A program made the position numbers and the translations under genes. The notes beneath the pieces were generated by a model. The model searched no databases and was not told where the DNA came from. It was given only the letters and a program-made list of their open reading frames with translations. Shown piece by piece: positions 53,473 to 58,648 of a stretch of DNA of 64,000 bases. Positions within the stretch are counted from its first letter, which is position 1, and every line of letters starts with the position of its first letter. The stretch is from Nitrospina sp. LS_NOB (lineage in GTDB: Bacteria > Nitrospinota > Nitrospinia > Nitrospinales > VA-1), in assembly GCA_001542995.1 (NCBI GenBank), contig LFLA01000014.1:96556-160555 (forward strand). Reading direction: 5' to 3'.

Positions 53473-55041
53473 ATGAAAAAACTTGGACCCATGGCAGGAT
53501 GGCTGGCTCTGACAACAGGTTTTATCGCCCTGTTTTTATATATCGTCCTTCCCGACCTCAAAACTTTGTCGGCTTCACTGGCAGTCGTCTGCCTGATCAA
53601 CACAATATATTTCGGTGTTGCTGAAGGCCCTCAATTAAAGCGAAGCCTTTCCTCGCATTCTGCACTATACGGCGCGAACACCCTGGCCTTGACGGCTATA
53701 TTCATGGGCATATTAATATTTGCGAACCTGCTTGCCTTCCGCCATAAACATCGTTTTGATTTTACGGAAGGAGGCTACTTCACCCTGGCACCGCAAACCA
53801 AAAAGCTTATCTCCAGTCTTCCGCGCGAGGTGAAGCTGACCGCTTTTTTTCAAACCGAATCTCCTGAAAAAATCGCTTTCACCAATTTAATTGCTGGATA
53901 TCTTGAGGAGACCGATAAAATCAAACTGCAATATGTTGACCCGGATAAAAACCCGGCGGTGACCAAACAATATGGCGTTACCACTTATGGAACTGTTGCC
54001 CTGGAAAGCGGCACCAAGGAAACCAAAATTCAAAATGCCAGCGAGGAAAGCATTACCAATGCGCTATTAAAGGTAACTCGCGACGAACAAAAATTAATCT
54101 ATTTTCTCGAAGGACATAACGAGAGCAATATAAACAGCGACGATAACCTGGGCTACTCCACAGCTAAAAAAAATCTTGAGCAGGACGGGTTTATCGTGAA
54201 GCCCCTACTCCTGCTCCAGTCAGGGGAAGTCCCCAAAGACGCTTCGGTACTGGTTATTCCCGGCCCCAAAAAACCGCTTCAGGATGAAGAAAAGGAAATC
54301 CTTGAAAACTATTTGAACTCCGGGGGCACAATTTTCATGCTTATTGATCCCAAGTCTTCATCCGGCATGGAAACTTTTCTCAAAAAATGGGGCATAGAAC
54401 TTGGAGATAATATCGTCATTGATCCTATGTCCAAACTTTTCGGGGGCGATTACGCGGCACCCGTGGTCAATCAATACACGGCCCATGAAATCACCAGCAA
54501 CTTTGTTCTGGCAACTATATTTCCGATTATAAGGTCGGTCCAAGGAGTTCCTGTAGCAGGCATCACCACCACCGAACTCCTGAAAACCAGCGCTAACAGC
54601 TGGGCGGAATCCGACTTCAATTCCGGAACTGTAAACTATGACGAGGATAAGGATATCAAAGGGCCGGTTTCCGTCTCGGTCATTGCCACAAAAATCCTGG
54701 GTGAAGCAAGCCCCGAAATTTCTGATACCCTTAAAAGCGATGCCGAGCCAGAGAAAAACAAACCTTCTTTAAAAGCTACACTTCTGGTGGTTGGGGATTC
54801 TGATTTCTCAAATAATCGCTACACCAACTTTTCAGGAAATGGCGATTTCTTTCTCAATGCCATTTCATGGCTGGCGGAGGAGGAACAACTGATTTCCATT
54901 CGCCCTAAAGAAAGGAAGAACACACCCATTCAAATAACCCAATCCATGGGGAACGCAATATTCATAATGGGTATCATTGTGTTTCCCGGCCTGATTGCCG
55001 CAATGGGAATTCGCATTTGGTGGAGGAGACGCCGATTATGA
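53473..55041 (+). CDS. GldG-like ABC auxiliary protein
   Basis: DFTEGGYFTL, YVDPD, YFLEGHNE, VVGDSDF and GNGDFFLN. Confidence 0.85.
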   Translation: MKKLGPMAGWLALTTGFIALFLYIVLPDLKTLSASLAVVCLINTIYFGVAEGPQLKRSLSSHSALYGANTLALTAIFMGILIFANLLAFRHKHRFDFTEGGYFTLAPQTKKLISSLPREVKLTAFFQTESPEKIAFTNLIAGYLEETDKIKLQYVDPDKNPAVTKQYGVTTYGTVALESGTKETKIQNASEESITNALLKVTRDEQKLIYFLEGHNESNINSDDNLGYSTAKKNLEQDGFIVKPLLLLQSGEVPKDASVLVIPGPKKPLQDEEKEILENYLNSGGTIFMLIDPKSSSGMETFLKKWGIELGDNIVIDPMSKLFGGDYAAPVVNQYTAHEITSNFVLATIFPIIRSVQGVPVAGITTTELLKTSANSWAESDFNSGTVNYDEDKDIKGPVSVSVIATKILGEASPEISDTLKSDAEPEKNKPSLKATLLVVGDSDFSNNRYTNFSGNGDFFLNAISWLAEEEQLISIRPKERKNTPIQITQSMGNAIFIMGIIVFPGLIAAMGIRIWWRRRRL

Positions 55042-56775
55042 AGTTTAAAGGAACGGCCCTGATGGCGGCTGTCTTCCTGAGTCTCGTTCTTTATTATTTT
55101 TTCGTTGACCTGCCCGCCGAACAAAAAGAAAAAATCGAAAAAGAGCACGCCGAAAAACTCCTTCCCATTGAAATGGAAAAAGTGGTTGAGTTTTCTCTGA
55201 CCGGCAATGGCGAACCCATAGCCTTAAAGCGCGTGGCTCCGTATAAATGGGATCTCATCCGCCCTCTCTCGGCAACCGGCGACTCTACAGAAGCAGAAGC
55301 CTTTATATCAGAAATCGAAAACCTTAAAAAAACCCGGGTGGTGGAAGAAAACCCTAAGGACCTTTCTATTTATGGTCTGAGTTCCCCAACTCTTAAAATC
55401 TATTTCAAATTTGAAAATAAAAATGAGGAGACTTTACTAATAGGGAACGAAAGCCCTCTAGGGGGCCATCTCTACTTCAAGCGAGAAAACCATCCTGCCG
55501 TGATGATGGCCGCTACATCCCGGTCCCGTTTTGAAAAATCCGTTTACAGTTTTCGCGACAAAACCCTGCTCAACTTCAATACGGGTTCCATCCAACGAAT
55601 ACAAATCCTCAGAGAGAAAAACCCCCTGGAATTCAAAAAAATGGGTGAAACCTGGGAAATATCAGGAGATATTCGTTTCCAGGGAGACAAGGATGCCATT
55701 ATGGATTTTCTCCAGGCCATTCAATTTTCCAGAGTCCGTGAGTTTGTCGATGAAAACCCGGACTCTCTTGAATACTATGGTCTGAATCCGCCGGCACTGA
55801 AACTCACTTTAGAAAATGAAAAAGGTGAATCCCAAACACTTTCTATGGGCAACCCCAAAGAAGGAAAAGGTTATTTCGGCAAAATCAATGGTTCTCAAAA
55901 TATCGTATTGGCAGACACCCGGCTTTTTGAAACACTCTCTCAAAAAACCGTGGAGTTTCTCGATAAAACATTGCTGGAGTTTGATGAAAAAGAAATTCTT
56001 GAGCTGTCACTGCACTCTGAAAATGAAACTATTCGCGTGGTTCGTGGCGAAAACGATGGTTGGAACATTCAAAGTCCAATAAAAACCGCCGCCGATCTGT
56101 CTACCGTTAACAGCCTGCTCTTTGATCTCAAAGAAGCCCGGATCAGCACATTCATAAAAATCTCTCTAGAGACCCCAGAATCGTTCGGCCTGGACACTTC
56201 CCAAAAATCTTTTAGCCTGAAAATGAAAGACTCAAAAATATGGACCCTGCAATTGGGCAATCAATCCACCAATGGTCGGCAGGTATTCGCCCAACGAACA
56301 GGGGAACCAACCGTATTTTCAATATCCAAAGAAGTGGTCGAAAAATTGTTTCGCAGTCTTCACGATTTAAGAAATAAAAAAACTACTGAAATTCGAAAGT
56401 ACTGAAGTGAATAAAATTTTGATCCAAACCCCTAAAAAACTCTTTGAGTTGAGGAAAAGTGGATCCCAATGGAGTCTCGAGAAACCCGAAAAAATCAAGG
56501 CCGAACATATCGGCAACGATCTGGTCTGGATCCTGAAAGGGTTGGAGTTTAGCTCTATTGTCACCCCACCCCTGCCCGCCAATCTCTCAGGGCTGGACTC
56601 TCCCTTATTCACCATCCGCCTTTTCAAGCAAAACGAGATTGCCGCCTTAAAGGTCGGCAATCTTTTTGAACCAGAGCAGGAATATCTCGTTGAAGTTGGA
56701 AACCAACAATATCGGGTTAAAAATAAATTTCTCGACACCATCCCCTTGAACTTGGACAAATTCAAGCTTAAATAG
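55038..56775 (+). CDS. DUF4340-repeat protein, frameshift at A7 run 56376-56382
   Basis: Repeated YGL..P motifs. Removing one A gives RNKKLLKFESTEVNKILIQ and joins ORF 56407..56775. Confidence 0.8.
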
Positions 56776-56968
56776 GCATTTTTTGAACATTGTGCATCAG
56801 AAAAGATCTGGTTTGTTGCCCCCACCCTATATTGTAATATTACTCTCTAAGCCACACATTATATGGTAGACAATGAACCAAACGCTCAAAAACTGGTTTT
56901 TTTAACCAAATAAACATATGTAAACAAATGACTTATGCGTTTTTTGGCAATTTTTTTCAAATTAATGC

Positions 56969-57022
56969 TTGACAGGTACTATATGTAGTGGTACTTTTTC
57001 GGAAGCATACAATATAAAGGAA
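56969..57022 (+). promoter_or_regulatory. Promoter (-35 TTGACA) overlapped by tandem NrdR-like boxes
   Basis: gtaCTATATGTAGtgg (56976-56991) and ataCAATATAAAGgaa (57007-57022), 31 bp apart, resemble acaCwAtATaTwGtgt. Confidence 0.7.
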
Positions 57023-57514
57023 CTGCTTATTAGGTTCTGGCACTGCAAAAGGTGCCTGATCGGGTTCCGAGTCCGGTTTTCCCGGAAGAAAGATGAATTA
57101 AGAGTTGTTACAGATCTTCCAACGGCGGGTTACTAGAAAAGCGAGTTCCATAGCAATGAATGAGACGCATCCCAAATTTGATTTTTTAAAAACAACCAGT
57201 GGGATGCGTGCCAGTCTCAAACCCCTTCCCAAACCCCCAAATGTATTGAGCGCCAGCCGAATCCTCCGTTCAGTCTCGGTAGATGAATTCCATCCAATTG
57301 GCGTAGTATGGAACCTCTTTTTAACGCTGGGTTTAGCCCGGAAAAATAGTAACCCGCCTCCTTTCTTTAAAAGGACGCGCCCCGCCTTTTCGTGAGTTTG
57401 CAGGTATTGATAGTATTTGCCTCCATGTCAAGGACGGTTGATTGAAGGATCTATTCTAAGGTTTAAGATTTCACTCGGGAAAGGCGGGGCGTTAACCCTC
57501 TTTCCCGTTTTTTT
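57005..57514 (+). ncRNA. Candidate large structured non-coding RNA or attenuated leader
   Basis: Several long-range perfect helices (57124-57135/57347-57358, 57165-57174/57200-57209, 57378-57392/57476-57491), ending in a hairpin plus T7. Confidence 0.55.
57476..57514 (+). terminator. Intrinsic terminator
   Basis: cgggaaag...ctttcccg followed by ttttttt. Confidence 0.7.
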
Positions 57515-57579
57515 GCCTTCGGTTAATTTTAATCGCTTTCCTCCCCCCGCTTGTTTATAATCCTTTCCGAAAACCAATT

Positions 57580-58044
57580 ATGGAAACCATTGTGAACAAA
57601 ACCGACCAAGTTCCCGTCCCCTGCAAGGGTGAACATCTTCCCCAATATGCGCACAAAGGCGATGCCGGTGCTGACTTGCAAGCTGTGGAAACCCGGATCA
57701 TTGCTCCCCGAGGTCGGGAGCTGATTGCTACGGGACTCCGACTGGAACTCCCGGAAGGTTATGTAGGTTTAATCTGGCCGCGCAGCGGACCTGCGGTTAA
57801 GCTGGGGCTTGATTGCGGTGCCGGAGTGATTGACTCACATTATCGAGGCGAGATAAAAGTTCTTCTCTTCAACCATTCCGATGATGAAATCCGTATCCAG
57901 TCGGGAGACCGCATCGCCCAGTTGATCATCCAAAAAGTAGAAACGGTTAAGTTCATACTGAGCGACCATTTGAGTGAAACGGCCCGCAACACCGCAGGTT
58001 TTGGATCAACGGGAGATCTGCCTGTTGCGAATTCCGGTCAATAA
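57580..58044 (+). CDS. dut: dUTP diphosphatase
   Basis: AGADL, PRSG, GVIDSHYRGE, GDRIAQ and RNTAGFGSTG. Confidence 0.93.
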   Translation: METIVNKTDQVPVPCKGEHLPQYAHKGDAGADLQAVETRIIAPRGRELIATGLRLELPEGYVGLIWPRSGPAVKLGLDCGAGVIDSHYRGEIKVLLFNHSDDEIRIQSGDRIAQLIIQKVETVKFILSDHLSETARNTAGFGSTGDLPVANSGQ

Positions 58045-58648
58045 TTCCATCCTTCAGCTTGAACAGGGGGATATCACCGAAAGCTCTGCCGATGCCATTG
58101 TTAATGCCGCAATCAAAAGTCCACATACGGCACGCATGGAAGAAAAAGAACTAAAGTCTATAGCCTCTTTCCTGCTATCAGCGCCGGCATATTCGGGTTT
58201 CCGCTTGAACTTGCGGCAGAGACCCTCCTCAAAACAGAGACCTTTGCGTAAGTCGAAAAAAACAGAAAAGCGAGATTCTTCACTGCGTTCAGAATGACAA
58301 TGCAATCTTGTTTAGAATGACAAGAAACGCCAGTTTGTCATCCTCGAGGAGCCGAAGGCGACGAAGGATCCCTCCCGGAATGACAGAAAAGCGAGATTCT
58401 TCACTGCGTTCAGAATGACAAGAAATGCCGGTTTGTCATTCTGAGGAACAACGTGACGAAGAATCTCGCCTTGCACTAACCTGGGGATTCTTCGATTTTT
58501 CGACTCATGCAAAGCTCTCCTCAAAACAGTCTGGCAATACCTTTCCCGGAAAACCGGAATTCAAACTGTGATATTTATCCTGTTCGACATAGAAACCTTC
58601 AACGTTTTCAAAGGCAGGCTGACTTTTCTTGAAAAAGGGGAAATCTGA
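58025..58648 (+). pseudogene. Macro-domain (ADP-ribose hydrolase) pseudogene, internally deleted and interrupted by a MITE
   Basis: QGDITESSADAIVNAA, then PAISAGIFGFP...ETLLKT|VWQYLS...VIFILFD once the MITE is removed; the GGGV segment is missing. Confidence 0.8.
58237..58519. mobile_element. Composite MITE (283 bp) with 24-bp TIRs and 9-bp TSD
   Basis: gagacctttgcgtaagtcgaaaaa / tttttcgactcatgcaaagctctc; ctcaaaaca at 58228-58236 and 58520-58528; internal palindrome modules. Confidence 0.92.

Follow-up and report, generated by a model that had tools for sequence, protein, structure and literature searches.

The element described here is an RNA of about 500 nucleotides (nt) encoded upstream of dut, the dUTPase gene, in Nitrospina sp. 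LS_NOB; it was analyzed in a 64,000-nt stretch of contig LFLA01000014.1 (host genome of 2.65 Mb), which is called the window and to which all coordinates refer. Kim, Roth and Breaker reportedly described, in 2007, 2'-deoxyguanosine riboswitches located before ribonucleotide reductase genes of Mesoplasma florum, and the dut RNA would be like these in that an RNA leader would tie deoxynucleotide genes to a nucleotide-related signal. However, the Mesoplasma florum riboswitches are variants of the purine riboswitch of about 70 nt, whereas the dut RNA is three times larger and has no Rfam match. The nadA motif of Acidobacteria (PMC6859854) and the Fibro-purF motif of Fibrobacter (PMC7668255) are lineage-restricted riboswitch candidates, each occurring exclusively upstream of one gene. 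The dut RNA resembles both in being confined to one lineage, in lying nearly always 5' of a single same-strand metabolic gene and in having conserved junctions and covarying helices, but it shares no sequence or model similarity with them, is far larger (a 235-nt core in an RNA of about 500 nt) and has a long 5' segment, a repressor operator and one genus in which the gene is missing. Like the raiA motif RNA (PMC10861870), it is large, highly conserved and usually found beside a particular gene; it is, however, unrelated in sequence, belongs to another lineage and has another neighbor, and its NrdR promoter offers a physiological lead. The promoter itself resembles the tandem operators of ribonucleotide reductase (nrd) operons. 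In published work, NrdR operators consist of two 16-base-pair (bp) boxes with a linker of 15–16 bp (PMC13584703), and tight NrdR binding requires spacers of 14–17 bp (PMC12051234); the dut RNA has in common with them two partly palindromic 16-bp boxes, a 15-bp linker and the overlap with the promoter (PMC13584703, PMC9110341, PMC12051234), the difference being that its transcription unit comprises a non-coding RNA with dut behind it and not an nrd operon. At the level of literature listings and abstracts, no paper connected NrdR boxes with either dut or an RNA, and none described an RNA sensor or structured leader for dut or an NrdR-controlled non-coding RNA. The corresponding records on Nitrospina transcriptomes and small RNAs contained nothing relevant, with the supplementary tables of non-coding RNA surveys, which lay outside this search, being a place that could hold an unnamed candidate.

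The sequence-only reading of this locus had proposed either a standalone non-coding RNA regulated by the nucleotide pool or a novel cis-regulatory leader, and had named four outcomes that would speak against both: a known Rfam family, a lack of conservation or covariation in relatives, the absence of a transcript, and an origin as the orphaned leader of a deleted nrd gene. None of them occurred, and the analysis supports the proposal in its either-or form. For the element, which was previously undescribed, it is firmly shown that no family library contains it: a search of the window with Rfam 15 gave no match at gathering scores, a search of 56700–57650 at E ≤ 10 gave only three chance-level matches of 13.8–17.9 bits, and a search of 15 diverse homologous loci at E ≤ 1 gave none. 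It is equally firmly shown that the RNA is real and structured; it is specific to the order Nitrospinales and present once per genome. The 804-nt intergenic stretch that carries it matched 31 of 41 relatives, over nearly its full length and with 69–96% identity within the genus, and in two islands, the promoter with its boxes and the center of the core, in other families of the order. In a 14-locus alignment across families, the helix closing the core was almost invariant, the long C-rich junction was conserved, and a dut frame came next in each locus. A covariance model of the core (R1), built from 28 sequences, detected exactly one copy in 90 of 102 Nitrospinales genomes, representing all 22 of the 22 genera; among genomes at least 90% complete, copies were present in 50 of 51, and the 18 genomes from the rest of the phylum had none. 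A scan of one genome per species (185,579 species) with a degenerate core pattern returned 111 stretches, 80 of which were listed. Among these 80, 54 were true members according to R1, labeled Nitrospina, Nitrospinaceae or Nitrospinota save for one labeled Nitrospirota, and 26, from other phyla, were chance matches that scored at most 14 bits or nothing in R1. The same pattern had no match in viral contigs, while metagenome contigs yielded at least 63 true members (63 of 80 fetched loci).

The structure of the RNA falls into a 5' segment, a conserved core and a 3' domain, of which the first two comprise the following features, given with the basis on which each was recognized:

57023..57123, plus strand: 5' leader segment with two local hairpins (conserved in the genus only)
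57039–43 / 57052–56, plus strand: GGCAC/GTGCC hairpin (covaries within the genus)
57072–76 / 57082–86, plus strand: TCCGG/CCGGA hairpin (read from the sequence)
57124..57358, plus strand: core closed by helix P1, about 235 nt, the conserved module (MAFFT alignment, RNAalifold, single-sequence fold)
57124–57135 / 57347–57358, plus strand: P1, a perfect 12-bp inverted repeat with 211 nt between its arms
57145–52 / 57307–14, plus strand: P2, GTTCCATA/TATGGAAC (RNAalifold, pair counts)
57165–74 / 57200–09, plus strand: P3 hairpin, ACGCATCCCA/TGGGATGCGT (inverted-repeat search; the repeat also takes in GAGAC/GTCTC)
about 57217–57249, plus strand: conserved C-rich joining strand (alignment)
57250–55 / 57299–304, plus strand: P4 (RNAalifold)
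57256–60 / 57276–80, plus strand: P4a hairpin (RNAalifold)
57282–85 / 57291–94, plus strand: P4b, a small hairpin (mutual-information scan)
57327–31 / 57337–41, plus strand: P5 hairpin (folds of individual sequences)

All nested helices and local hairpins named by the sequence-only reading were located among these. The core (241 nt in this calculation) folded with −77.8 kcal/mol (z = −6.0), a value that none of 200 dinucleotide shuffles equaled, and the minimum-energy fold of a single core sequence reproduced the helices derived from the alignment. RNAalifold, applied to a MAFFT alignment that had not been fitted to any structure, predicted P1, P2, P4 and P4a. Compensatory changes were present in 11 of 32 core pairs; 98.0% of the cells were paired vs 28–47% when the 3' partners were slid by 1–3 columns, the number of doubly changed cells was 38 vs 3–10 in these slid controls, and none of 500 column shuffles attained any of five pairing measures. 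Both conservation and covariation are strong across the whole order. The helices behave differently from one another: P1 is nearly static, with no change in 5 of its 12 pairs, and P2 shows covariation in all six pairs. The P3 and P5 segments form hairpins in the great majority of sequences, with arms that vary among genera and with lengths of 38–76 nt (P3 segment, from P2 to the junction) and 31–51 nt (P5 segment, before the 3' strand of P1); genera g5 and g7 have no P5. Retention of shape while the sequence and length of P3 and P5 change is a pattern typical of aptamer domains. About 50 positions of the core that are unpaired or lie in junctions are conserved. The conserved structured domain, covarying helices and conserved junctions by which riboswitches are recognized were all found in it. 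A mutual-information scan for pseudoknots and tertiary pairs returned the known helices and P4b only. Outside the genus, the 5' segment is variable in both length and sequence.

Upstream of the RNA lie a promoter and tandem boxes of the NrdR type, which were laid out as follows:

56969..56974, plus strand: −35 hexamer TTGACA of the RNA promoter (read by eye)
56976..56991, plus strand: NrdR box 1, 16 bp, between −35 and −10 (genome-wide box scoring; kept across families)
56992..56997, plus strand: probable −10 hexamer TACTTT after a 17-nt spacer (placed by spacing)
57007..57022, plus strand: NrdR box 2, 16 bp, starting 31 bp past the start of box 1, i.e. with a 15-bp linker (box scoring)
56822..56869, plus strand: second, upstream NrdR-like box pair, 56822–37 and 56854–69, 32 bp apart (genome box scan; genus conservation)

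The TTGACA, the two boxes 31 bp apart and the roughly 500 nt without a gene behind them are all where the sequence-only reading had put them. To score the boxes, every genome position was compared with an NrdR-box consensus and pairs 30–33 bp apart were collected; the consensus letters are reportedly those of Rodionov and Gelfand from 2005, and the genome's own reductase site served as the internal control for them. With a summed tandem-box score of 20.5, the pair at the RNA ranked joint first, together with the site of the reductase gene, among 583 pairs in the genome. NrdR itself is encoded in this genome (G000:C6; 181.7 bits vs TIGR00244), as is a single gene for the large subunit of ribonucleotide reductase (Ribonuc_red_lgC), 5' of which TTGACA is followed by two boxes spaced 32 bp, an arrangement like that at the RNA. 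The reductase promoter has the layout TTGACA-N17-TATTTT, which matches that of the RNA promoter, and by this layout transcription would start at about 57003 with TACTTT as the −10 element. TTGACA showed no variation in the 14-locus alignment spanning families, and of the 98 copies with boxes, 71 had TTGAC immediately 5' of box 1. These 98 copies derive from 99 unique ones with sufficient upstream sequence, i.e. tandem boxes precede all but one of them (within 330 nt), with a start-to-start spacing of 31 bp in 62 copies and of 32 bp in another 32; P1 lay 116–319 nt (median 152) from box 1. A consensus promoter and terminator scan of 56500–58300 called no site, which was not taken as absence because its criteria exclude both a TACTTT −10 element and the 16-nt terminator loop present here (loops of 3–8 nt are allowed). 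It is firmly shown that the RNA element stands under an operator of the NrdR type, as the earlier interpretation of the boxes had it; repression by NrdR itself is inferred. The second box pair, about 150 bp 5' of the main one, ranks sixth among the tandem matches of the genome and is kept within the genus, with none seen outside it; it might serve as an auxiliary operator or mark another promoter.

The 3' part of the RNA comprises a long hairpin and a terminator-like structure, separated from P1 by a pyrimidine tract:

57378..57491, plus strand: 3' domain, a long irregular hairpin with a perfect, GC-rich, 12-bp closing stem, 57378–89 / 57480–91 (inverted-repeat search)
57429–35, plus strand: conserved motif CAAGGAC near the top of the 3' hairpin (recurs across loci)
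57476..57514, plus strand: terminator-like hairpin, 57476–83 / 57500–07, with an inner stem 57486–89 / 57496–99, a 16-nt loop outside the scan criteria and T7 at 57508–14 (by eye)

In the form CA[AG]GG[AG]C, the motif was present in 95 of 103 loci, past P1 and before dut. Its flanks paired with a median of −40.4 kcal/mol vs −24.1 kcal/mol for shuffled sequences, and the native value was better by at least 5 kcal/mol in 93 of the 95 loci; this test was run as a duplex of the motif flanks, a search for the stem in minimum-energy folds having been dropped due to spurious outer pairs in 61 of 103 loci. The terminator-like hairpin consists of 8 + 4 bp followed by T7. It was visible by eye, as the sequence-only reading had claimed for an intrinsic terminator, and was left uncalled by the scan tool with its loop limit of 8 nt. 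In the window its 5' arm shares positions with the 3' arm of the long hairpin (57480–91), and because of this overlap the long stem and the terminator hairpin are mutually exclusive. In other genera a U-rich tract follows the long stem directly, whereas in the genus of the window it comes only after the second hairpin; across loci, a tail with at least 4 U in 8 positions followed the long stem in 56 of 95. The 3' strand of P1 was also more complementary to the downstream region than to shuffled sequences (median −17.0 vs −11.8 kcal/mol; z ≤ −2 in 55 of 107), and in most cases it paired there with the 3' arm of the long hairpin stem. Three further proposals for this region were rejected: (i) pairing partners of CAAGGAC in the C-rich junction, the pyrimidine tract after P1 or the P4a loop, which on a check by hand amounted to 4–7 bp and showed no consistent covariation, (ii) a CsrA site at CAAGGAC, the CsrA match of the genome being partial (23 of 53 profile positions, 33.4 bits), and (iii) a tRNA-like acceptor end (a 7-bp stem and N-C-C after P1), for which neither a conserved final A nor a T-arm was seen.

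Downstream of the RNA the window contains the following features:

57556..57561, plus strand: TATAAT, possibly a promoter of dut's own, its −35 element being weak, 18 nt before the dut start (by eye)
57580..58044, plus strand: dut (dUTPase; Pfam PF00692, 120.5 bits)

The TATAAT is the one that had been noticed near 57556 from the sequence, and the block between the RNA and dut (57523–57579) is kept in the genus. A same-strand dut gene followed the RNA in 36 of 40 genome loci and, among the metagenome matches listed, in 58 of 63; of the five metagenome loci without it, four end 0–273 nt downstream. Overall, the linkage was retained in 21 of 22 genera, and the tie of the RNA to dut across the order is firmly shown. 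The distance between the two differs among lineages. In all ten loci of the family designated f2, dut starts no more than about 25 nt past the 3' stem, and a full promoter-like pattern preceded dut in a single one of 37 short-gap loci. Because there is no room for a promoter, dut of f2 would be transcribable solely through the RNA, its hairpin and the U-tract. The RNA lies in the 5' untranslated region (UTR) of dut in this family, may or may not do so where a promoter-like element precedes dut, and does not in genus g7, which is described below. Most genera outside f2 have a longer gap between the RNA and dut, and the TATAAT of the window falls into this group.

To look for transcripts, four sequencing runs were compared with the region. 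Contigs of two metatranscriptome libraries from separate studies fell wholly on the core (57132–57349 and 57129–57327); they stem from relatives and differ at 14–16 positions. They show the core sequence in RNA libraries, which is weak evidence of transcription because DNA carry-over is possible. Their ends may mark strain divergence in a mixed community and not the ends of an RNA. None of the four runs contained a contig over the 5' segment, the terminator or dut, and run X1 contained nothing, gaps that prove nothing. The groundwater metatranscriptome run X4 contained four contigs of 35–82 nt on the minus strand of 57356–57416, two of which were at least 99% alike.

As a possible new RNA regulator in nucleotide metabolism, the dut RNA is a strong candidate. 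We favor, with a confidence that falls just short of even, the hypothesis that it is a novel sensor/attenuator leader of dut driven from an NrdR-controlled promoter, because dut of f2 appears reachable only via the RNA, because the anatomy of the core is aptamer-like on a variable platform, and because competing helices meet at the U-tract. A sigma-70 promoter would have its spacer and start region covered by the tandem NrdR operator, and the RNA would be made once NrdR leaves the DNA, i.e. at low deoxynucleotide supply, as the known behavior of NrdR suggests. The product would be an RNA of about 500 nt consisting of the variable 5' segment, the core of about 235 nt and the long 3' hairpin with a GC-rich base, followed by a U-rich tract. 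The core would act as the domain that senses a ligand, either a small molecule or a protein, and the 3' hairpin together with the terminator would form a gate that sets transcription into dut. Through such a coupling of core and terminator, a riboswitch-like attenuator would be layered beneath the control by NrdR. In a more specific version, which we regard as possible but rather unlikely, the core would represent a new riboswitch class, its aptamer responding to a nucleotide of deoxyuridine or thymidine or to some other read-out of the deoxynucleoside triphosphate (dNTP) pool, and would act in series with NrdR to set the level of dUTPase, while in g7, free of dut, it would be a ligand-responsive RNA in its own right. 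If this is true, one promoter–leader unit would merge two independent measurements of nucleotide status.

Several findings weigh against a leader of this kind. With P1 116–319 nt past box 1, the sensor domain would begin at a distance from the start that is unusually large among riboswitches. When 5 or more U in 8 positions were required, a tail followed the long stem in only 31 of 95 loci, the 5' strand of P1 showed no excess of downstream complementarity (median z = −0.14), and no convincing anti-terminator scheme could be derived, as either 5' partner of the 3' arm of the stem would still leave a hairpin before the U-tract. Among the loci with a long gap, TTGCNC-N17-TATAGT occurred 16–31 nt before dut in 13 of 66 vs about 5 expected, and TATA[AG]T before dut in 39 of 66; dut may thus be independent of read-through in the genera that have such a promoter-like element. 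Well-formed copies of TTGCNC-N17-TATAGT between the terminator and dut were seen at loci L016, L018, L068, L071, L072, L009 and L011. In genus g7, the RNA with its boxes faces a convergent gene with a ParB_N domain and no gene lies downstream; dut is located on another contig, in an operon that lacks both the RNA and strong boxes. Among four species of g7, the core and the NrdR promoter are 96–98% identical, whereas the flanks are 49–88% identical per 100-nt bin, the neighboring genes about 70–85% and other spacers 49–77%. Because the identity of the core exceeds that of its neighbors, it is under purifying selection without dut, and because g7 keeps the RNA without dut, the core has a function that is independent of dut in cis.

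The main rival of the leader hypothesis, which we consider a real though somewhat doubtful prospect, is that the element encodes a stable non-coding RNA that stands alone, has an NrdR-controlled promoter and a terminator to itself, acts in trans (e.g. on a protein or a metabolite) and is merely co-located, in some lineages co-transcribed, with dut. Such an RNA is suggested not only by the strongly conserved g7 copies without a downstream gene, but also by (i) its own promoter, joined in most lineages by a hairpin and U-tract, (ii) the promoter-like element directly before dut in several genera and the TATAAT in the window, (iii) its single-copy, near-universal occurrence in the order, which is reminiscent of a housekeeping RNA, (iv) the long variable 5' segment, which could be a processed spacer, and (v) the RNA-library contigs on the core. 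A likeness exists in gamma-proteobacteria, where 6S RNA lies upstream of ygfA and is co-transcribed with it. However, no trans target or partner is known for a standalone RNA, and it sits uneasily with the same-strand linkage to dut in all genera but one and with f2, where the lack of room for a promoter makes the RNA the 5' UTR of dut; as to the library contigs, their ends may only mark the end of conservation and are no proof of a processed species. The leader hypothesis and the standalone one are not mutually exclusive.

Very little speaks for a divergent form of a known RNA (RNase P, transfer-messenger RNA [tmRNA], 6S, signal recognition particle [SRP] RNA or a known riboswitch) or for an orphaned leader whose nrd gene was lost. 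NrdR boxes do usually stand ahead of nrd genes, and an RNA that is single-copy and universal within the order would suit a known housekeeping class, but the Rfam searches were negative and tmRNA, RNase P, 6S and SRP RNAs were each located elsewhere in the genome above their cut-offs, in accordance with the earlier impression that the element lacks recognizable hallmarks of RNase P, tmRNA or SRP RNA. An orphaned leader is contradicted by the order-wide position of the RNA before dut and not before nrd (in the genome and listed metagenome loci counted above), and at the reductase gene there are separate boxes but no copy of this RNA; we hold this group of explanations to be extremely improbable. 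A protein-coding gene, i.e. the 96-codon frame 57105–57395 that runs through the core and is open across all of it in 47 of 71 unique sequences, is just as implausible, since it shows no codon periodicity (for codon positions 1, 2 and 3, the mean column entropy was 0.82, 0.86 and 0.89, and the number of invariant columns 10, 9 and 10), the invariant 3' strand of P1 is read in differing frames by lineage, stops break the frame in members of g3, g7 and g19, base pairs covary, and the start would be a TTG that lacks spacing from the sole purine-rich stretch.

The size of the element, its conservation and its clear covariation make it ready for biochemical testing. The promoter implies production when dNTPs are scarce, and the neighboring dut points to the supply of deoxyuridine triphosphate and deoxythymidine triphosphate (dUTP/dTTP); because promoter and neighbor thus indicate when the RNA would act and on what, the search for a ligand is narrowed beyond that for most orphan RNAs. 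Genus g7 provides a natural experiment that separates a function in cis from one in trans. Nitrospinales are the main nitrite oxidizers of the ocean, and because of this leading role a lineage-wide control of DNA precursors would be ecologically relevant.

Several minor observations concern the surroundings of the RNA and its relatives. Right after dut, at 58045–58420, the window contains a short frame that starts like a Macro domain and is broken off, followed by two copies of a repeat of about 35 nt; an intact Macro-domain gene follows dut in g7, and the Macro-like frame of the window may be a remnant. Upstream of the RNA, a DUF4340 gene is seemingly split into 55017–56405 and 56407–56775, which lie in different frames and both match DUF4340, although the score of the second fell short of the cut-off; either a frameshift or the presence of two genes could account for this. 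In the sister orders of the class (G103, G104, G106, G107 and G108), a homologue was found, with Dut of the window as the query, in only one of five genomes, where no Pfam family search was made, and these orders may use another type of dUTPase. Finally, a high-scoring NrdR-like pair was seen at G000:C7:4402 (locus L321, about 1503–1550), flanked by a divergent Mrp/ApbC-like gene and a gene resembling the A subunit of gyrase/topoisomerase IV, and it is possible that this pair marks a further member of the NrdR regulon.

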